In this document: in pieces, positions 50,379 to 60,754 of the stretch
Numbering within the stretch: position 1 is the first letter of the stretch
How the letters are laid out: the number at the start of each line of letters is the position of its first letter
Assembly (NCBI GenBank): GCA_043824495.1
Contig: JBDRSV010000024.1
Coordinates: forward strand, 107,816-171,815
Reading direction: 5' to 3'
DNA: 64,000 bases
Origin: Candidatus Aenigmatarchaeota archaeon
GTDB taxonomy: Archaea > Aenigmatarchaeota > Aenigmatarchaeia > QMZP01
The notes under the pieces: model-generated
Database searches by the model: none
Told to the model about the DNA's origin: nothing
Seen by the model: only the letters and a program-made list of their open reading frames with translations
Translations under genes and position numbers: made by a program

Positions 50379-51845
50379 TTATCCCTCCGTTGTGTTTGTC
50401 TCTGTTGTATTACCGTCATTTCCAGGTTCTTCGTCAGATGCGCAATCCGCTGGGCATGTGCCTTCGTATTCTGCTCCTAGACATGTAGGATCAGAGTCGC
50501 TACATCCGGTTTCTACGTTTGCTTCGCCTTCTTCACATACGCCATTGCCGCAGGTTGTTGTAATTGTTGAATTACCGTCTGTGTCAGTTTCATTGCCGTT
50601 GTTGTCTGTTCCGCCTGCACCATCGTTTATGTCATCCACTTCATCTTCTGTTGTATCACATTTGTCTGGATGTTCTACACAGAATTTCTCACAGACGTCT
50701 GCGCTTGGATGATCTTCACAGTAATCTTCTAATCTGTCTTCAACGATTCTGCATGCAGTTGGATGATCTTTACAGAATTCAGCACATCTTTCATTATCTG
50801 CGTTACCTACACAATACTTTGCAAGTACTTCTGTGACCTTCTTACAAACAACTGGGTGCTCTTTGCAGTATTCTGCACATTTGTCATTATCTGGGTTTTC
50901 TTTACAGAAGTTTACGAGTCTCTCTGTGAATTTTTTGCATGCAGATGTATGTTCTTTACAATAATCTATGCACTTTGCATCGTCTGCATTGTTTACACAA
51001 TACTCTGCTAGACTCTTTACTACATTCAAACACTTGTTAGGGTTGTCTTTACAGAATTCTAAACAGCTTTCATCTTCTGGTGCTTCTGAACAGAATCTTT
51101 CTATTTTATCTCTTACGTAATCACAAACATCCGCATTTGGATGCTCTTCACAGTAGTTTTCTGTTCTTTCTTTTTCTAGAAGTCTACACACTTTTTCCTC
51201 CGGATGATCTACACAGTATGTTTTGTATGCTTCTCTACATCTTGAATCATCCAGATTATCTCTGCAGTAGTTCCTGAATAATGTTTTACATCTTTCATCT
51301 TCAGAATTGTCTGTACAGAATTCACTGATTCTTTCCCTACAGTTTGCGTCTTCATTCTTGTCACAGTAATCTTTTACTTTCTCTGCAATTTCAGGAGCTT
51401 TTGCTACTCTTGTTCCTTGTAATATGTACATGTGGTATGTTGTCCCGTCTAATACAAGAGTACCTGCCCAAACTTCTTGAGTTCCTTTTAGAACTGAAGA
51501 AACATCTATTGTTCCCTTATCTACGTCATCTAAATAGATATCTGCTGTTGCATGCCCATCGGCTATAACAACGTTCTTCATGCTGTATTTAACATCGTCA
51601 AGGTATAGTACACCAACTGTTGCGTCTACAGTTTCTCCTAATAGGTCAACAGAAACAGTTGCTATGCCGGCCTTCACCATCATGAAGTCCATGGCGTCGC
51701 TTGGTGATGTTGCTATTCCTTGTCCGAGGAATCCCAAGAATTTGATTTTGTGGTCGCTTGAACTTGTCTCTACCTCAGCAAATACAGTTGAGATAAAGAA
51801 CAAGCTTACTACCAGTATAACCAAATACATGAAACTAGATTTCAT
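50379..51845 (-). CDS. Secreted protein with 15 (Y/F)C-x5-7-C repeats
   Basis: Signal peptide; YCDKNEDANC ... FCVEHPDKC repeats; C-terminal CGNGVC. Confidence 0.85.
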   Translation of the reverse strand: MKSSFMYLVILVVSLFFISTVFAEVETSSSDHKIKFLGFLGQGIATSPSDAMDFMMVKAGIATVSVDLLGETVDATVGVLYLDDVKYSMKNVVIADGHATADIYLDDVDKGTIDVSSVLKGTQEVWAGTLVLDGTTYHMYILQGTRVAKAPEIAEKVKDYCDKNEDANCRERISEFCTDNSEDERCKTLFRNYCRDNLDDSRCREAYKTYCVDHPEEKVCRLLEKERTENYCEEHPNADVCDYVRDKIERFCSEAPEDESCLEFCKDNPNKCLNVVKSLAEYCVNNADDAKCIDYCKEHTSACKKFTERLVNFCKENPDNDKCAEYCKEHPVVCKKVTEVLAKYCVGNADNERCAEFCKDHPTACRIVEDRLEDYCEDHPSADVCEKFCVEHPDKCDTTEDEVDDINDGAGGTDNNGNETDTDGNSTITTTCGNGVCEEGEANVETGCSDSDPTCLGAEYEGTCPADCASDEEPGNDGNTTETNTTEG

Positions 51846-51942: not shown

Positions 51943-52806
51943 ATGGCTTTAGATTTCTTTCAAACGTATTTTGTTAATTCAATATTACAGAATGGTTGGT
52001 TTAATCCTATAAACACTATCGTGTACTCCATTCTCCTAATTATAGCAGTAGTTCTTGTATACAAACTACTAAAGAAAATGAACATCAAGATAGACAAATA
52101 CTTCTTTTATGCAATTGTTCCATTTGTTTTCTGGGCTTCATCTACACGTGTTTTACATGATGCTGCGCGTGCGGGTAGATTATTACCAGAACTCAACACG
52201 TTTTATAGCTCTTTAGTATTCCCAACACCAGGAAGCTATTTCATAACATTTGCATTTGCTTTCGTAACATTGCTAGTAGGTCTAGGTCTACAAAAAACAA
52301 TTAAGACAGCCTACTGGAAAGTCATGTTTGTAGTAGGTACTGGAGCCACGCTATTAAATCTTTTCTGGCTTCCATATGACAATCTATACGGAGCAGGATT
52401 AATACTCGGCTTAACAGCTGTATGGATAGTGATATTCTTCTTAGCTTCCAAATCATTCCAATTTTCTAGCTTGAAGAAATTTGTAGAAAAACATAACATA
52501 GCAAATCTATTCAGTAAAGAGAATCAAGGTATATTAGCAGCTCATATGCTTGATGCATCTGCAACATTCATATCCATAGCATATTTCGGTTATTTCGAAC
52601 AACATGTTTTACCACGCGCAATTTTCCCATTCTTAGGACCAGGATCAATGTTCCTTCTAAAGCTGGTGGTATTAATCCCAGTTCTCTGGATAATAGACAA
52701 TTACGCAGAAAAAGATGAATTCAGAACTCTACTAAAGATAGTAGTCTTAATACTTGGCCTTGCACCAGGACTGAGAGATGTAATTAGATTAGGTGCTGGA
52801 GTTTAA
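51943..52806 (+). CDS. DUF63 family membrane protein
   Basis: YNPINT-like start (FNPINTIVY); AHMLDASATF; EQHVL; ILGLAPGLRD. Confidence 0.85.
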   Translation: MALDFFQTYFVNSILQNGWFNPINTIVYSILLIIAVVLVYKLLKKMNIKIDKYFFYAIVPFVFWASSTRVLHDAARAGRLLPELNTFYSSLVFPTPGSYFITFAFAFVTLLVGLGLQKTIKTAYWKVMFVVGTGATLLNLFWLPYDNLYGAGLILGLTAVWIVIFFLASKSFQFSSLKKFVEKHNIANLFSKENQGILAAHMLDASATFISIAYFGYFEQHVLPRAIFPFLGPGSMFLLKLVVLIPVLWIIDNYAEKDEFRTLLKIVVLILGLAPGLRDVIRLGAGV

Positions 52807-55800
52807 ACTGCTACTTGCCAATCAAATGCTTGATCATACCACTTATTTGATCCTTCTAGAGGCCAGTTAAACATTTTCACATCAAGATGCGCTGTTGGAC
52901 TACCGCTCTGAGTTGTAGTTCCTCTAACTGAACCCATTATTGTTCCTGTGCCCACGTAACTACCTACCTTTATGAATGGGTGAACATTTATGTGGCCATA
53001 TGATGTAACGAATCTCTTACCAAACAAGTTACTTTCTACCCACACAGCCTTACCACCATAGTCATCCCATGATTTAATGTCAACAACTCTTCCAGAATAA
53101 AGTGCTGGTATTTCCTTATCTCCTATTTGAGCAGGTGGGCTAGTTGCAAAATCATAACCTTTGTGTGTTTCTTGTAGGGTCCCTGATCTAGCTGCATCAT
53201 ATCCATCTGTTATCACTATAGTATTCAATCCAGTTGAATGTGCTAACAAATCATTTCTGAACATTTCCGGGGTCCATATATTATTAACAGATCTCATGCC
53301 TCTGTAGAAATCATAATAATCCATCACTTTAGATACGAATGTTCTAGTTTCTGATGGTATTGAAGAACAGTCTTTTACAGAAGACCATGAAGATGCTTGA
53401 CAAGTAACCAAAGCTGTAGTAAATGCTTGAGGTCCCATATTCCATGCAGCTAAAACACTCTCTGTGTCTGCATAAGGTCCTCTATTATCTAAGTAAGAGA
53501 AATAACATGACCCAGCTTTTATGTTCTTTTCTGGATCGAAAATTGTACTGCTATCGAAACTGATATCTGCTGATGTAATTTCATGTCCTAAATCTCTACA
53601 ATAATCATGACTAGGCCTTCCTTCTTCTGTTATGTCTTGTATAGTAATTGATCTGAGTTGCATCATTCCTTTTGCAGATGCACCTGAAGTTTCACCTTTT
53701 TGCCAATTACTTTCTTGTGTTATAATTGCTTTCAATATATCTTGGTTGACACTATACGCATTCGAGGCACTTGTTATATAAGGAGCATAATCACCAAACA
53801 TGACTTCGTCTGGTTCATTAACAGTTGCTGTTATATCTTCTCCACCACAGTTTCCACTTGTTTTTTGTCCTGAATTAATACAATTGTTTGGACATAAACA
53901 TTCTTCAGTTACAAATGAATCACATGTAAATTGGTCTACTACATCATTACATAGTGGTGTTGTAGGTCCATACGAATCACATAAAATACCACCAAATTCT
54001 ACTTTGGTGCTTGATACCTCAGATCTCTCGAAAATATAAGATGCATCAGCTTGTATAAGGAATGTTTCAGCTGAAGAAGTCATATCTTCTCTTTGGGAGA
54101 ATAAACAGAATATGAGGTATTGATCTTTTAAGTTGTCCCACCTGTAAGTTCTAACACCATCTACAGCATCTATGGCATAAGATTTTTCATCATTAGTGTC
54201 TACACCTTTTGGTAGGAAGTTACATTGATATGGTGTCCCCATTTTTTCAGGAACTTTTAATGTTATCTTAGCAGATTTTATTTTAGCATTCTTTTGTGTT
54301 TGATCTGGAAGAAGATCAAATTGTATGTGATATCTAGTACCTTCTCTTATTGGTTGTTCTAATGTGTCTATCCTAAGCATAGCAGGAGAGTTAGAAAGTT
54401 TAGATTGTTTCTTTGAAAATGTAATAAGACTTCCTTGTGAAACTCTTCTATCCCATTCATCTCTACTCATAAATTCAATTTCCAAACTTGAATTTATACT
54501 GTAACCATAATCTATTATTGTATTTAATGGAAGGAACTTCTCTCTTAATCCAGCTTTCTCCGCAGTTTCACAAGATATTCCTGTACTCTCAAAGAATAAT
54601 TGGCGCGTGTCCAATTTAGCTAAATCACCACCATCTCCTTCTATACATATCGTTGTATCTTTGAAACCTAGATCATCTATTGTCAAGTCATTCTGCGACA
54701 AACCGGGTATGCTTACTCCACCTCTTGTGCCATATATATTCCTATAAGACATATTGAACGATAGAGCTACGCATACGTCTCGCGCCTCAAACGCGCCTTT
54801 GTTTTTAATTCTTACTATCGCACTATACGGTTGGGCTACAAATATAGGAGTTGTCTTAAATTCTTCTATTTCCACACCGAAAGCTCCCGCTAATCCTGTT
54901 GTCGGATCTGTAGTATAACTTCCGTTAACCATGCCCTGCGCATAGCCAACCGGATTGCTTATCATATATAATCCTGTTCCTATACTTGCGCTCAACTGAG
55001 TAAACATCGTCGTAATCGGCTGCACTGTGGATTCAAATCCCGTGTAAACTGTAGGCCACCACGGACCTAAGAAGGCTGTACCAACTTCATTCGTACCAGG
55101 TCCTAGTGCAAACAGTATAACCGCCGCACCAAGCATGATAAATCCTGTAGTTGGTCGCGCCTGCGCGGGTGAAAAGAATCCTGCAACAGATGAAATTATC
55201 CAGAAATACAAAAACACTGAAGCTAGAGTGCCTTGAAGCTCCCATCCTGCTGTAGGAGCAATAGCGCTCCATCCAAATACCCCACCAAGGGCACCAGATA
55301 TTACCAGCACGATAATCATTATTATAAAGAATAATCCTTTATCTATCAATTGTCCTATGCCTCTAATTTCTTCTGTTTCTCCTGTTTCTTTTGACGGTTT
55401 AGGCGGTATTGCAAAGAATGCCACTGCAATCAGACCTAATAACATAGATTCAAATATACTGAAGAATATCCATGGTATAAGTAAGAATCCAAGAACACCA
55501 AATCTTAGAACAGACTCTACATATTCTGAACCAACTTCAGGGTCATAAGTTAATTTGAGTGAGAAGTATCCCACGAAAGCTGTAATAATCAATCCTATAT
55601 TTGCGAATGGGAAAGTGCTCGCCATGAAACCCAGTGCAAAACATGTTAGGGCTCCGATTTTCAGAATGCTTCTAGTAAAGCCCCATCCCAAGTGTTTGTC
55701 ATTAAATATTTTCTTGAAGATATATCTATCCCCTGAGTTTATGTTGATATTCACATTCTTAGGTGGCTTAAATTCTGATGCTGATGGAATAACAAAAAAT

Positions 55801-57365
55801 ACACCAAGCGTAGCAAAAGCTAGCCAGAACCAGAAACTTCCAAGAGTGTAAGAAGCAATGAAACCAAGTACAACCAGTGCAAATAATGGGAACACTTTCA
55901 TTATTCTGTTCCCTGCTTTACCTTCGATTCCACCCAATATCTTTTTGGATCGTGTAATATGTTTTTCCCTTGACCATTCTTGTCTTCTGTCTATCATAGC
56001 ATCGCCAAGTTCTGCCTTCTCTGCAGAGGAATTGAGGAATTTTTCCTTAGTTTTTTTTCTATCCTTGACAAGGAAACGCTCCAGTCTTTTTCTTTCCGTT
56101 ACGCTGAGGTCCTTAAGATTTTTGGTTTCAAGTAACGCCTTTCCATCTGCATCTCTGGCTATTGTTCCATCAGGATTCTTTATCCTTTTACTGAAGTATT
56201 TCTTCAAAGCCATATTCGTGCTTTTTTCCATAGAGTGGAAATATTTGTCCTGTCCTTCTTTGTAAAGTTTATACTCGTAAGGAGTTAGAGAAACAAACTT
56301 ACCTTCGTTCTTACACCAGAAAACAAATTTTATTGCCTGGCCTTTTTTGTTTTTGATTTCCTGAACAAGTTTAAGTACGGATTTTGCACAATTTGGGCAC
56401 CAAATGCGATCCTCAGTGATAACTGGTACAGGTTCCGGAGTAGGCGAAGGTGTTGGCGTTGGTTTGTATTCTATATCGAAAACAATATCAATTTCTGTCT
56501 TTTCTCCAGGCTTTATTTCAAAACTCCCGTCCTTTCTTTCACCTGAGTAGACAGCATAATAATTATATTTACCCGGCCTGCATTCGAGATCCATTATCGG
56601 TGTTACAAGCCTGTCTCTGGTCAAACGAGAGCACCAGAAACTTGCGCTTATTTCATTTCCGCCTTCTTTGTCTGCCCATGCTCTTACATACAAATATCCA
56701 GATTCGTGGTATTCCAGAAGTTTGGGGGGAATTGCTGGAAGTGTGTCTGATGTGGGTTTTTTATAATCAATTTGTTTTACACCAGGAACAAATGTTCTAC
56801 TACTGTTGCCCATTTCTTTGTACCAAACATCAAAAAATCCATCATTCCCGTTTTCTATATCTTGGCTAGTAAGTCCGTTTCTGAGTAGAAGTTTTGCGGA
56901 TTCTCCTCTCTTATCTTGAAAAAATAATTCTCGAGCTTCTAATATGATATGATTTAGAAGTTTAGGTGAAATTGCTGGAAGTGTGTCGGATGTGGGTTTT
57001 TTATATTCAATTTCTTTTATACCAGGAACAAATGTTTTGGGATTTATCTTTTCTACATATATATTCAGTTCCTTTTCCCAGTACTTGAAAAGTCTATCTA
57101 TTTGATGATCATCGTATCCACGTTTACCTTTTCTATTGTACCCTATGGTTTTCAGAAATTCCCTTGCTTTTTTCCTAAATCTTCCTTTACCGAATCCTCT
57201 CCAGAAAAGTCTTTTGGCATGCTCAAATCCAACTTCGTCTACTATTGGTATAAGACCGTGATTGTGACAATATAATATTGTTGGAGTCTCCTGATTAGGA
57301 AAAAACTCTTTACAATTTTCATTACAATAAGGACAGCGTTCTATATACTTAACCAAGATTATCAC
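52803..57365 (-). CDS. Giant membrane protein with C-terminal SLT (GH23-like) and M23 peptidase domains
   Basis: About nine TM helices; AIITQESNW...GMMQL...LAAWNMGP; HKGYDF...YGHI...AHLD. Confidence 0.85.
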   Translation of the reverse strand: MIILVKYIERCPYCNENCKEFFPNQETPTILYCHNHGLIPIVDEVGFEHAKRLFWRGFGKGRFRKKAREFLKTIGYNRKGKRGYDDHQIDRLFKYWEKELNIYVEKINPKTFVPGIKEIEYKKPTSDTLPAISPKLLNHIILEARELFFQDKRGESAKLLLRNGLTSQDIENGNDGFFDVWYKEMGNSSRTFVPGVKQIDYKKPTSDTLPAIPPKLLEYHESGYLYVRAWADKEGGNEISASFWCSRLTRDRLVTPIMDLECRPGKYNYYAVYSGERKDGSFEIKPGEKTEIDIVFDIEYKPTPTPSPTPEPVPVITEDRIWCPNCAKSVLKLVQEIKNKKGQAIKFVFWCKNEGKFVSLTPYEYKLYKEGQDKYFHSMEKSTNMALKKYFSKRIKNPDGTIARDADGKALLETKNLKDLSVTERKRLERFLVKDRKKTKEKFLNSSAEKAELGDAMIDRRQEWSREKHITRSKKILGGIEGKAGNRIMKVFPLFALVVLGFIASYTLGSFWFWLAFATLGVFFVIPSASEFKPPKNVNININSGDRYIFKKIFNDKHLGWGFTRSILKIGALTCFALGFMASTFPFANIGLIITAFVGYFSLKLTYDPEVGSEYVESVLRFGVLGFLLIPWIFFSIFESMLLGLIAVAFFAIPPKPSKETGETEEIRGIGQLIDKGLFFIIMIIVLVISGALGGVFGWSAIAPTAGWELQGTLASVFLYFWIISSVAGFFSPAQARPTTGFIMLGAAVILFALGPGTNEVGTAFLGPWWPTVYTGFESTVQPITTMFTQLSASIGTGLYMISNPVGYAQGMVNGSYTTDPTTGLAGAFGVEIEEFKTTPIFVAQPYSAIVRIKNKGAFEARDVCVALSFNMSYRNIYGTRGGVSIPGLSQNDLTIDDLGFKDTTICIEGDGGDLAKLDTRQLFFESTGISCETAEKAGLREKFLPLNTIIDYGYSINSSLEIEFMSRDEWDRRVSQGSLITFSKKQSKLSNSPAMLRIDTLEQPIREGTRYHIQFDLLPDQTQKNAKIKSAKITLKVPEKMGTPYQCNFLPKGVDTNDEKSYAIDAVDGVRTYRWDNLKDQYLIFCLFSQREDMTSSAETFLIQADASYIFERSEVSSTKVEFGGILCDSYGPTTPLCNDVVDQFTCDSFVTEECLCPNNCINSGQKTSGNCGGEDITATVNEPDEVMFGDYAPYITSASNAYSVNQDILKAIITQESNWQKGETSGASAKGMMQLRSITIQDITEEGRPSHDYCRDLGHEITSADISFDSSTIFDPEKNIKAGSCYFSYLDNRGPYADTESVLAAWNMGPQAFTTALVTCQASSWSSVKDCSSIPSETRTFVSKVMDYYDFYRGMRSVNNIWTPEMFRNDLLAHSTGLNTIVITDGYDAARSGTLQETHKGYDFATSPPAQIGDKEIPALYSGRVVDIKSWDDYGGKAVWVESNLFGKRFVTSYGHINVHPFIKVGSYVGTGTIMGSVRGTTTQSGSPTAHLDVKMFNWPLEGSNKWYDQAFDWQVAV
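56716..57036 (-). repeat. Internal direct repeat in the giant gene (81 bp x2, 240 bp apart)
   Basis: TFVPG(I/V)K(E/Q)I(E/D)YKKPTSDTLPAI(S/P)PKLL occurs twice (56716-56796; 56956-57036). Confidence 0.9.
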
Positions 57366-57413: not shown

Positions 57414-58541
57414 TTATTTTACTAGCTCAATCTTGACGTCTTCTATGTCCCAATTACCGGCACCTGAGAAGATGATTTGATTTTCACCTGCAGTTACTTG
57501 ATCTGCAGTGAAATCTACTGTGTTCCAGCCTTGGTCTGGGTGTTCTGTTGTCAATGTGTGTCCATTCTGCTTTATTGTGAGTAAACCGTCTCTCACAATC
57601 ACATTTACGTAGTACTTTACCTGAGCCTTCATTTGTCCATTTTCAATTAATTTGTATTTTTCTTCAGGCATATCGTATGATCTTGTTCTCACAACCTCAT
57701 TAGAAAGTAAGAATATCTTAAGTTCTGTCTCTTCTAGAGTAACTACACCGTCTCCTACAACTTCGAAAGATATTATGTTTTTTCCTGTTTTAAGAGGAAC
57801 GTCCCCAAATTGTAGTTCAGCTGTATCAAATCCTCTTGGAGTGTCAGTGTATATTTCTAATCCATTCACTTTTATTCTAAGTGTGGATCCACCTAGAGCA
57901 AAGAAGCTGATTTCAGCTTTACTGAATGTTTGTAATTCGCTTCCAAGTAAGTCGAATGAAACAATCTTTGCTGGTCCGTATTCTATTCCAACATCCATGT
58001 TTCTGATATTATAAGCATTGCTTGCCCAGAAGAATAAACCGGGTCCATCTGCATATATTTCCACATCATTTGATGCTCTTACAAAGTCCTTGTCTATCGT
58101 AACATCATATGTGTTTATTCCTGCTTTTCTACCAAAGAAATCCTTTCCGTTCCATTTGATGTGCAAATCACCGAGAACATTTGTATCTACAATCTCGAAT
58201 TTGATTCTAGCGCCTCTTCTAGACTCCATTAACCATTCAGGCACATTAATTGTGAATTCTTCTGTTGTTTCTCCAATATATCCATTTCTTATATCTGATC
58301 TGAATATTGATTTGATATTCTCTAATTGGGGCTCTCCAACACGCATGTATCCCAGAGATTCTGTTCTAGTAGCTGATTCTGTTACAAAACCAACTGTTCC
58401 TAGACTAAAATTAGCTATAACAGTCTCATTCTCAGGAACTACAACTGGTCCCAGAAATGGTGTTATTAAAAACATACCTATGAGTAAGATTATCGCTACA
58501 ATAAGCAAAATCATGAAGTCTTCGACGCCCTTTCTCATCAT
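57414..58541 (-). CDS. Membrane-anchored beta-rich (Ig/jelly-roll-like) protein
   Basis: N-terminal TM or class III-like signal; repeated beta domains. Confidence 0.75.
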   Translation of the reverse strand: MMRKGVEDFMILLIVAIILLIGMFLITPFLGPVVVPENETVIANFSLGTVGFVTESATRTESLGYMRVGEPQLENIKSIFRSDIRNGYIGETTEEFTINVPEWLMESRRGARIKFEIVDTNVLGDLHIKWNGKDFFGRKAGINTYDVTIDKDFVRASNDVEIYADGPGLFFWASNAYNIRNMDVGIEYGPAKIVSFDLLGSELQTFSKAEISFFALGGSTLRIKVNGLEIYTDTPRGFDTAELQFGDVPLKTGKNIISFEVVGDGVVTLEETELKIFLLSNEVVRTRSYDMPEEKYKLIENGQMKAQVKYYVNVIVRDGLLTIKQNGHTLTTEHPDQGWNTVDFTADQVTAGENQIIFSGAGNWDIEDVKIELVK

Positions 58542-58591: not shown

Positions 58592-59608
58592 ATGAGAATC
58601 ATATTCCAGGACCAAAAAGAAGGTGTGATTAAATTAGCTGCAGATTCTTTGGATGATCTATGGCATCTAAGTCACATACTCGAACCAGGAGATTTGGTTA
58701 CTGCTAGGACTCTAAGAAAAACAGCAATTAAACGCGGAACAGAGATAGAATTAGGAGAAAAAAGACCTATCACATTGACAATTAGAGTGGATAGAACGGA
58801 TTTCCATATGTATACACACAAGCTTAGAATAACAGGAAAAATTGTCTCAGGACCTGAAAATATACAAATCTCTTCTTTTCACACAATAGATGCAGATCCA
58901 GGAATAACACTAAAGATACAGAAAAAATGGAAAACGTATCAGCTAGAAAGACTCAAAAAGGCTAGAATAAAGAAACCATTCTTATTCATGTGTTTAATCG
59001 ATAGAGAGCAGGCTGATTTTGCAAGTATGAAAGAATCAGGATTGCAATGGTTAGGTTCAATTAACTTCAAGAAAATAAAAGGTAAAGAAGATAATAGGGA
59101 TGATTATTACAGAAAAGTGATGGAGAAATTAGAAAGCGAAGAAGAATATCAACATATAATAGTTGCGGGTCCAGGATTCGAAAAGGACAATGTTCTAAAA
59201 TTCATAAAAGAAGAAAATCCAGAATTGGCGGCCAAAATAAAAACAGAATATATTTCTTATATAGGAAAGAATGGAGCTCAAGAATTAATGAAAACTTCTA
59301 TTAATAGGATACTCAAGGATAGTAGAGTTACTGAAGAGACTTTGGTTGTAGAAGAATTACTTAAGAGAATAAAACAAGAAAAGCTAGTTGCATACAACAA
59401 ACTTGATGTAGAAAGAGCTATAGAAATGGGTGCAATAGAAACTTTGATTGTTTCACAAGAAAAACTAAAAGAGCTAGATGAACTTATGGAGAAAGCAGAG
59501 AAAGTCGCATCTCGAATTATAATTGTTTCATCTGATCATGAGAGCGGAGAAAAGTTCCTTGGTATCGGAGGAATTGGTGCTCTCTTGAGATATGAAATGA
59601 GAAGTTAG
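58592..59608 (+). CDS. pelA: Pelota (Dom34) mRNA surveillance protein
   Basis: DDLWHLSHILEPGD; AGPGF; GIGGIGALLRY. Confidence 0.95.
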   Translation: MRIIFQDQKEGVIKLAADSLDDLWHLSHILEPGDLVTARTLRKTAIKRGTEIELGEKRPITLTIRVDRTDFHMYTHKLRITGKIVSGPENIQISSFHTIDADPGITLKIQKKWKTYQLERLKKARIKKPFLFMCLIDREQADFASMKESGLQWLGSINFKKIKGKEDNRDDYYRKVMEKLESEEEYQHIIVAGPGFEKDNVLKFIKEENPELAAKIKTEYISYIGKNGAQELMKTSINRILKDSRVTEETLVVEELLKRIKQEKLVAYNKLDVERAIEMGAIETLIVSQEKLKELDELMEKAEKVASRIIIVSSDHESGEKFLGIGGIGALLRYEMRS

Positions 59609-59988
59609 TAGGTCTCAATTTTTAACTCTGGTATTTTTCTGAAATGTTTCACATTTCTTGCTAATATGGTTTCATTATTTTTCAATACAATTCCAGCAAT
59701 CATGCTATCCTCAGGTTCTATCATATCTCCTTTTTTTACAAGTTCTCTTTGGATATCACCTGCCAGTAATGCACTTTCAAGATCGAAAGATAGGATGCCT
59801 AATGAAGTCAAGAGATTTCGTATATTCCCCTTTTCACTTCCCGATTCTTTTAGTCCTTGCCATAACTCAAAAACAGAAACGGTAGTTGTTAAAGCAGGCT
59901 CAAACATTTTATCGAGTTCTTTGGCTTTTTCCACTGCTTCTTTATTGTTCCTCAGAAGATCTATGATAAAAGACGTATCAAGAATCAT
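59605..59988 (-). CDS. vapC: VapC PIN-domain toxin
   Basis: ILDTSFIID; EDSMIAGIVL; RNVKHF. Confidence 0.92.
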   Translation of the reverse strand: MILDTSFIIDLLRNNKEAVEKAKELDKMFEPALTTTVSVFELWQGLKESGSEKGNIRNLLTSLGILSFDLESALLAGDIQRELVKKGDMIEPEDSMIAGIVLKNNETILARNVKHFRKIPELKIETY

Positions 59989-60218
59989 GCCAGTTCCTCT
60001 TTAACTCTCTTTGTACGTAACTTACTAGACGATCTAATTTTCTTTATAGATGACTCAAGTTCCGTAGCTTCTTTTTCGGTTAAAATACCAGCAAAATCAG
60101 AAAGCTTCACCTTTCCCGCCATCCTGTTAATCACATCAGTAAAACTTTCCTTTTTACTCTTTAGAGACTTTAGTCTATCGTAGGCTTCTTTTGAAATGGA
60201 AATTGTTTTCGTTGACAT
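59985..60218 (-). CDS. vapB: VapB-type antitoxin (DUF217-like)
   Basis: MSTKTISISKEAYDRLKSLK...ESFTDVINRM; start revised from the ORF track. Confidence 0.85.
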   Translation of the reverse strand: MSTKTISISKEAYDRLKSLKSKKESFTDVINRMAGKVKLSDFAGILTEKEATELESSIKKIRSSSKLRTKRVKEELA

Positions 60219-60754
60219 ACATATATATGTGTATGTACTACTTATAAAGTTTTCGTGTTTAGGAGGAATTGGAGCTCTCCTGATATATGAGATGAGATGA
60301 TGCTGTTCTCCCAATAGTAAAGTATTTAAGCCCAAAAAGGATATATTTCTATATATGTCACCATTTGTAAGTGACAACTATTATAATCATCAAGTAACAA
60401 ATATCACCATTTCATGTTCCCCTTAAAACAAAAAGAAAATTCACAGAATTCAGTAAGAATTTACTAGATTCGAAGACTTCCATGAGTTTGCACAAGCATT
60501 CAGCCTTTCAAGACACACAAGAAAATTCTGCAAAATCGCAGAAATTTAGTCGTTTGGAAGGATCTGACAAGCATAGTGTAAGCTCTCTTGATAGCGATTT
60601 CTGAGAGTGAATTTTCTGATCAATATATGTCTTTTAACCCGACTTTTCTCTGTCTGGCGTGACTTTCGCTAAACAAAACAAAAACCCCAACTTGACTGTC
60701 TCAACGGAGGTGAAACAAAAAAGACAGTTGACAAATCACAGAAGTTTATCATCT

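Follow-up and report, generated by a model that had tools for sequence, protein, structure and literature searches.

Large extracellular proteins with SLT domains have been described in Woesearchaeota and Pacearchaeota, where they were proposed to bind or degrade bacterial cell walls (PMC8204110; Vigneron et al. 2022, PMC9723730; PMC10936187; PMC11537232). The family fam00969 is reported to be specific to these two groups (PMC8204110). Here we analyse P0001, a 1520-residue membrane protein of a Candidatus Aenigmatarchaeota archaeon that ends in an SLT domain followed by an M23-type metallopeptidase domain. Its gene occupies positions 52803–57365 of the reverse strand of the window, which is the whole 64,000-nucleotide stretch of DNA under study and corresponds to C24:107816-171815 of a 1.01-Mb assembly that is composed of 29 contigs and is 80% complete. 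Like the fam00969 proteins, P0001 is large, comes from a DPANN archaeon, and has an SLT domain with a predicted extracellular location, and the same role is proposed for it. Unlike them, as far as a comparison by description reaches, it originates from Aenigmatarchaeota, is built on a scaffold of approximately nine predicted transmembrane helices that usually lacks a hydrolase, and additionally carries an M23 domain of the HxD type. The probability that P0001 is a surface-tethered, contact-dependent cutter of bacterial murein, displayed on a lineage-specific scaffold, is estimated to be about 60%.

Experiments with the haloarchaeon Halogranum salarium have shown that its M23 hydrolases Woldo and Danwoldo kill bacteria (Strock et al. 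2025, PMC12352652). P0001 resembles them in being an archaeal M23-type hydrolase that we infer to be aimed at bacterial murein, which the organism itself does not make. However, Woldo and Danwoldo are secreted, contain PG_binding_1 domains, and have a patchy, plasmid-biased distribution, whereas P0001 is integral to the membrane, has no known binding domain, is encoded by a syntenic core gene, and has a non-canonical HxD site. Modular archaeal peptidoglycan hydrolases were defined by a catalytic domain combined with a wall-binding domain and a secretion signal (Strock et al. 2025), and the latter two were not found in P0001. Because the survey demanded a wall-binding domain (PMC12352652), P0001 falls outside its count. 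The precedent of the haloarchaeal enzymes (PMC12352652) also raises the option that the tail of P0001 is cleaved off, with the cysteine-rich linker in front of the enzymatic domains as the processing site, and diffuses as a bacteriolysin against competitors. Such a released weapon is quite unlikely given the missing signal peptide and wall-binding module, and a conserved, syntenic chromosomal gene does not have the pattern described for weaponised hydrolases.

The two activities of P0001 also occur in Aenigmatarchaeota and Woesearchaeota in operons for pilin-like proteins, which share with P0001 the lineage and the display on the cell surface. Among 41 related genomes, Pfam matches to SLT are present in 17 and to M23 in 19, mostly in such an operon. 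The conserved version has five genes, and all five products have pilin-type anchors; gene 2 encodes the SLT protein and gene 4 an M23 protein with the canonical HxH motif. An example is located at L055:7915-11989 (G003:C7), and others are in L056-L060 and L063. The operon enzymes are separate proteins of 300-400 residues, and their M23 domains retain the sequence HLHFE, whereas in P0001 both activities are fused on the nine-helix scaffold and the corresponding sequence is HLD. The five-gene operon was not found in the 80%-complete genome studied here by tblastn and hidden Markov model searches, and P0001 is the only carrier of an SLT or M23 domain in it. In relatives at the level of the class, there are proteins with a single membrane pass that have an SLT domain and then M23. 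No homologue was recovered by a word-based search with the SLT-M23 part of P0001.

The combination of LytM/M23-type and SLT domains also occurs in the Gram-positive type IV secretion hydrolases PrgK of pCF10 and TraG of pIP501, which are membrane-anchored and open murein locally. P0001 shares the combination of domains and the membrane attachment. However, PrgK and TraG have single-pass anchors, are encoded inside the operon of a type IV secretion system (T4SS), and act on the producer's own wall. P0001 is not a single-pass protein, its gene is not in a T4SS operon, and the cell presumably has no murein wall of its own. The original prediction connected the enzyme pair with conjugation. No T4SS genes are present within approximately 10 kb on either side of the gene, no VirB4-type ATPase (AAA_10) scores above the cut-off genome-wide, pilus-type ATPases are encoded far from the locus, and the locus itself is a conserved housekeeping neighbourhood. 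It is therefore very improbable, despite the precedent of LytM and SLT pairs in PrgK, that P0001 is a VirB1- or PrgK-like helper that makes a passage through a wall for the transfer of DNA or protein, and the connection with conjugation is not supported.

The reading frame of P0001 is uninterrupted and starts with GTG; an identical protein in a public collection, encoded on a contig of 171,815 bp, starts three codons downstream and has 1517 residues. The features of P0001 described below are all encoded on the reverse strand. The predicted cytoplasmic head is approximately 490 residues long and precedes the membrane helices. It begins with a zinc-ribbon-like motif that was identified by reading the sequence (residues 8–40, positions 57246–57344; CPYC...C...C followed by HNH), and the orthologues have this CxxC motif at their start as well. 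Next is an internal repeat, whose two copies (residues 90–139 and 175–219, positions 56709–57098) are 56% identical over 50 residues (E = 2e-17, BLASTP of the two halves). The second zinc-ribbon-like motif (residues 320–356, positions 56298–56408) contains CPNC and one further cysteine; the CxxC motifs are thus at residues 11–14 and 323–326. The family-conserved part of the protein begins at this second motif, and the alignment with the relative P0003 starts at residue 307.

The membrane domain of P0001 (residues 487–757, positions 55095–55907) consists of approximately nine helices. Hydropathy, the positive-inside pattern of loop charges, and an AlphaFold2 model agree on a topology in which the N-terminus is inside and the C-terminus outside the cell. 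In the model calculated with 26 homologous sequences, the predicted local distance difference test (pLDDT) scores of the helices are mostly above 90. The ectodomain (residues 828–1128, positions 53982–54884) is formed in the AlphaFold2 model by beta-sandwiches similar to immunoglobulin and CARDB domains. It is connected to the enzymatic tail by a linker that contains eight cysteines in residues 1129–1173 (positions 53841–53981). The GC contents of the SLT and M23 parts are 36.1% and 39.6%, respectively, compared with 36.2% for the genome. The original prediction had described the 1520-residue frame, the CxxC motifs, the internal repeat, about nine membrane helices with a cytoplasmic N-terminus, the extracellular immunoglobulin-like and cysteine-rich parts, the host-like composition, the GH23-type motifs QES, GMMQL, and AWNMG, and the M23 motifs HxxxD and HLD, and each of these was recovered.

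The SLT domain, which belongs to the GH23 lytic transglycosylases, spans residues 1191–1360 (positions 53286–53795). Residues 1196–1316 match the Pfam profile PF01464 with 55.3 bits in the scan of the whole protein and 62.1 bits when the piece is scanned, both above the cut-off of 21.3 bits. The catalytic motifs of GH23 enzymes are present: the catalytic glutamate E1218 is part of the sequence QES, the GLMQ motif takes the form GMMQL at residues 1233–1237, and the AYNxG motif the form AWNMGP at residues 1307–1312. This part of P0001 can also be aligned to the structures of MltC, EmtA, and Slt70. The domain is predicted to cleave the bond between N-acetylmuramic acid (MurNAc) and N-acetylglucosamine (GlcNAc), which would give 1,6-anhydro-MurNAc.

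The M23-type metallopeptidase domain is located at residues 1395–1500 (positions 52866–53183). It matches PF01551 with 36.6 bits (cut-off 28.7 bits) in a scan confined to the last 155 residues, and is absent from the list of matches of the full-length scan. The motifs HKGYD (residues 1401–1405, with H1401 and D1405 of the zinc-ligand motif HxxxD), SYGH (1455–1458, with H1458 as the catalytic histidine of the YxH block), and AHLD (1492–1495, with H1493 and D1495) are present, in line with the HxxxD and HLD of the original prediction. The canonical HxH motif is missing, as D1495 takes the place of its second histidine, the third zinc ligand. At least eight other proteins in the subgroup alignment retain HxD as well as HxGYD and SYGH. 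This conservation indicates that HLD is a signature of an M23 subgroup and a selected variant of the active site rather than decay, and suggests that the site may work with an aspartate in the place of the third zinc ligand. Since D1495 replaces the histidine and HxD is kept in at least eight relatives, the domain is filed under a divergent HxD subgroup with presumed activity, and not as a canonical LytM/lysostaphin-type enzyme. Members of the subgroup share HxGYD, SYGH, and H-[LV]-D-x-K, and most of them have a W-P-L...W...AFDW tail. The named members are from DPANN metagenome-assembled genomes (MAGs), namely archaeon GW2011_AR6 and MAGs labelled Nanoarchaeota, Pacearchaeota, and Nanoarchaeia. 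Several members of the subgroup are encoded beside SLT proteins or form a part of them, and another forms a fusion with a GDSL/SGNH esterase. Within this well-studied class of antibacterial enzymes, the HxD subgroup is a candidate for a new variant of the active site.

The gene for the esterase fusion with the HxD-type M23 domain is located in L062:7539-11224 (G012:C37) and is followed by a gene for a 631-residue protein with a weak match to SLT. The esterase could strip O-acetyl groups that block lytic transglycosylases.

The enzymatic tail of P0001 is carried by a widespread scaffold. The complete protein matches 38 of the 41 related genomes, and the matches are restricted to residues ~420–1140. 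This part was used for an alignment of 26 sequences, named A1, with P0001 among its rows. Within the order, the A1 profile matches 85 of 90 genomes, and within the phylum it matches 221 of 371. P0001 matches the profile with 766 bits, a score to which its own presence as one of the 26 rows contributes; independently of the profile, its sequence identity to other scaffold members is 28–42%. The closest full-length relative, P0003, is 46% identical, but ends after the SLT domain and lacks M23. The members of the family are labelled "hypothetical protein" in their sources, and profile searches of Pfam, NCBIfam, and sequences from the PDB found no match to the scaffold or its membrane domain.

The AlphaFold2 model of the scaffold calculated with A1 has a mean pLDDT of 80 and contains a helical membrane bundle followed by beta-sandwich domains. 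Fold searches with the model returned nothing for the membrane domain. Matches to the ectodomain are limited to generic beta-sandwiches, with Z-scores of up to 11 over approximately 100 residues and low TM-scores; they include the legs of integrins, ClfB, the soluble domain of AglB/STT3, and transglutaminase. The identity of the protein as AglB/STT3 was rejected, as it has no PF02516 match and no WWDYG motif.

The gene of the scaffold has a conserved position in Aenigmatarchaeota genomes. Among 20 relatives fetched with their surroundings, the gene of a DUF63 membrane protein is beside the scaffold gene in all but one, which is on a short contig. A gene for a 375-residue protein is upstream in 13 of the 20 and pelota in 12, with the same order and orientation as here; in most of these relatives the 375-residue gene is directly adjacent, and in some it is separated by 2–5 kb. 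This synteny shows that the scaffold is an old, vertically inherited backbone gene of Aenigmatarchaeota and not part of an imported island. The named relatives of P0001 are from "Candidatus Aenigmatarchaeota archaeon", which together with the archaeal neighbours, such as DUF63 and Pelota with its eRF1 fold, fits the archaeal origin of the gene. A recent import of the tail from bacteria was rejected, as its composition is like that of the genome and its named closest matches are archaeal MAGs (up to 47% identity), although most of the close matches carry no source name. The association with bacterial-looking islands in the original prediction does not hold, as the gene belongs to the syntenic backbone and its nearest named SLT and M23 relatives are archaeal.

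One in-frame stop codon (TGA, TAG, or TAA) is present in each of the scaffold genes of G001:C74, G012:C28, G014:C62, and G337:C19. These stops could be sequencing errors, signs of pseudogenes, or sites of recoding.

The scaffold is ancient, and the tip that it displays is exchangeable. Most orthologues terminate shortly after the ectodomain, the end of which could be located in 62 unique members of the family. Ten of these have a tip with an SLT domain, which is alone in five, combined with a cysteine-rich module in four, and with M23 only in P0001; the genome studied here is so far the only one with this fusion. Two members carry a GH73 glucosaminidase, 22 have the cysteine-rich module as the sole tip, 19 have a short tail or none, and the remaining nine have other tails. 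The outer tip of this conserved surface protein is thus a predicted murein cutter in approximately one of five members. Syntenic orthologues from other genera end in an SLT domain in G010, G033, G036, G015, G323, and G321, as does the gene of G001, a genome of the same genus, with an SLT domain of a different type, a cysteine-rich module, and no M23. Pfam confirmed the SLT tips of G010, G033, G036, and G323, and the SLT domains of G015 and G001 share an open frame with the scaffold. The GH73 tips belong to the orthologues at L008:368-3448 (G022) and L083:2278-5763 (G348) and were confirmed by Pfam with 34.7 and 38.1 bits (cut-off 30.2 bits). In a tree of SLT domains, the tips of the scaffold do not form one clade, and well-supported branches force at least two origins; with 46 of its 102 forks open, the tree speaks to the absence of a single clade and not to the history of the domains. 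The placement of the domains points to repeated grafting or swapping of SLT tips.

The cysteine-rich module is present in 26 of the 62 members and is the commonest tip. It is approximately 110–140 residues long, has the pattern C-x-G-x-GGC ... CC ... C-x2-A-x3-W, and had no match in the databases. Tails with this module are found in L037, L038, L039, L049, L052, L053, and others.

The best argument for an encounter of the tip with murein is that three unrelated families of murein hydrolases, GH23, GH73, and M23, occur at one position of one conserved protein. Murein is the likely substrate of the tip because the orthologues independently carry SLT or GH73 domains at the same position. It is improbable that the domains bind or cut a different glycan or peptide, such as one in the cell's own envelope, the wall of an archaeal host, or chitin-like polymers, or that they are adhesion modules. 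Some GH23 enzymes act on chitin, P0001 has no wall-binding domain, and catalysis by the HxD variant of M23 is presumed. However, the catalytic motifs are intact, and the convergence of the three families on one tip position would be difficult to reconcile with a substrate other than murein. Pseudomurein is not an expected target either, as it has beta-1,3 links to talosaminuronic acid and is resistant to lysozyme-type enzymes.

FtsW/RodA and penicillin-binding proteins were not found in the 80%-complete genome, and its lone match to Mur_ligase_M is of a kind also present in control archaea, which make no murein. Synthesis of the cell's own murein was therefore rejected, and the enzymes are unlikely to act on a wall of the cell that carries them. 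No AnmK, NagZ, LD-carboxypeptidase, Amidase_2, GH73, or NlpC/P60 was found in the same genome. These absences bear on the alternative that the tethered enzymes are used for feeding, in which murein of dead bacteria would be digested and the amino sugars and amino acids taken up beside the cell. Dead-bacterial murein has been proposed as a source of amino acids for Pacearchaeota (PMC11537232), and tethering would hold the products near the cell. However, the 1,6-anhydro-MurNAc released by a lytic transglycosylase would find no AnmK or NagZ for its use, LD-carboxypeptidase and amidase were not found either, and an enzyme fixed on a nine-helix protein reaches little of an insoluble substrate. Feeding is an unlikely function of P0001.

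We favour the reading of P0001 as a contact-dependent cutter of bacterial murein. The head with the zinc-ribbon motifs would remain inside the cell, approximately nine helices would span the membrane, and the beta-sandwich stalk would project outward. The far end of the stalk would display the lytic transglycosylase, which would cut the glycan strand between MurNAc and GlcNAc, and the M23-type endopeptidase at the same end would cut the peptide cross-links. Together they may open the bacterial sacculus locally at the site of contact, for the purpose of attachment, access to the contents of the partner, or killing. With both enzymes tethered to the archaeal membrane, their action would be restricted to murein that the cell touches. 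One chain would thereby join two activities that are distributed over separate pilin-like proteins in sister genomes.

Several observations weigh against this reading. Approximately 50 of the 62 scaffold members have no hydrolase, and therefore the basic function of the scaffold is something else. The M23 domain does not have the second histidine of the canonical HxH motif, and the Pfam scan of P0001 found no recognised wall-binding domain (LysM, PG_binding, SH3, or SPOR). A single-sequence AlphaFold2 model of the tail is poor, with a pLDDT of 37. As the genome is 80% complete, the absences of genes are provisional. The analysis shows the domains with their motifs, the predicted topology, and the distribution, synteny, and variable tips of the family, and from these we infer the activity of the enzymes, their murein substrate, and the contact with bacterial cells. 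To our knowledge, cultivation has so far identified archaea alone as hosts of DPANN, and we know of no host of Aenigmatarchaeota.

The original prediction of a surface apparatus directed against bacteria stands in part. It is in agreement with the predicted location of both hydrolase domains on the outside of a membrane protein, the host-like composition, and the failure to find murein synthesis genes. However, the general idea is already known: it was published for Woesearchaeota and Pacearchaeota (PMC8204110, PMC9723730) and shown experimentally in haloarchaea (PMC12352652). New are the Aenigmatarchaeota scaffold family with a variable tip, the fusion of SLT and M23 on this scaffold, and the HxD subgroup of M23. 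The main comparative paper on Aenigmarchaeota contains no mention of such enzymes (PMC8407114). The locus bears on the question of whether any DPANN archaeon lives on bacteria. For the published idea that tiny, symbiont-type archaea of this kind act on bacterial cells, it offers a concrete device that is open to testing. The enzymatic tail is accessible to expression and assays, the scaffold could serve as a tag in imaging and proteomics, and the type of the tip can be compared with co-occurring organisms.

A broader possibility, which we regard as speculative and doubtful, is that the nine-helix scaffold and its 375-residue partner constitute a host-contact device of Aenigmatarchaeota, whose exchangeable tip (SLT, GH73, M23, or cysteine-rich) is matched to the envelope of the partner, and that the lineages with murein-cutting tips live on or prey on bacteria. 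If so, this would be a case of cross-domain episymbiosis, and typing of the tips would predict the type of host from the genome alone.

The 375-residue partner, P0168, is encoded upstream of P0001 at positions 57414–58541 of the reverse strand and was identified as a partner by synteny in relatives. Its N-terminus forms a pilin-like anchor (RKG/VEDFMILLIV...), its body is rich in beta structure, and it is a member of an unnamed DPANN-wide family. The gap between the two genes is 48 nucleotides, and they are probably co-transcribed. On the other side, the convergent gene of the DUF63 membrane protein (positions 51943–52806 of the forward strand; PF01889, 218 bits) overlaps the stop codon of P0001 by four nucleotides; it is a syntenic neighbour that serves for context only. 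The other neighbours are archaeal backbone genes, which encode Pelota with eRF1 domains, cytidylate kinase, an AP-endonuclease-like TIM barrel, and a YGR210-type GTPase.

Two other features are located near the locus. Positions 50379–51845 of the reverse strand encode P0169, a secreted protein of 488 residues with about a dozen short cysteine-rich helical repeats and an acidic tail rich in threonine and asparagine; it has no Pfam match above the threshold, and a relative is encoded in the same neighbourhood in G003. A pair of a PIN-domain toxin and a VapB-type antitoxin, encoded at positions 59605–60377 of the reverse strand, adjoins the pelota gene.

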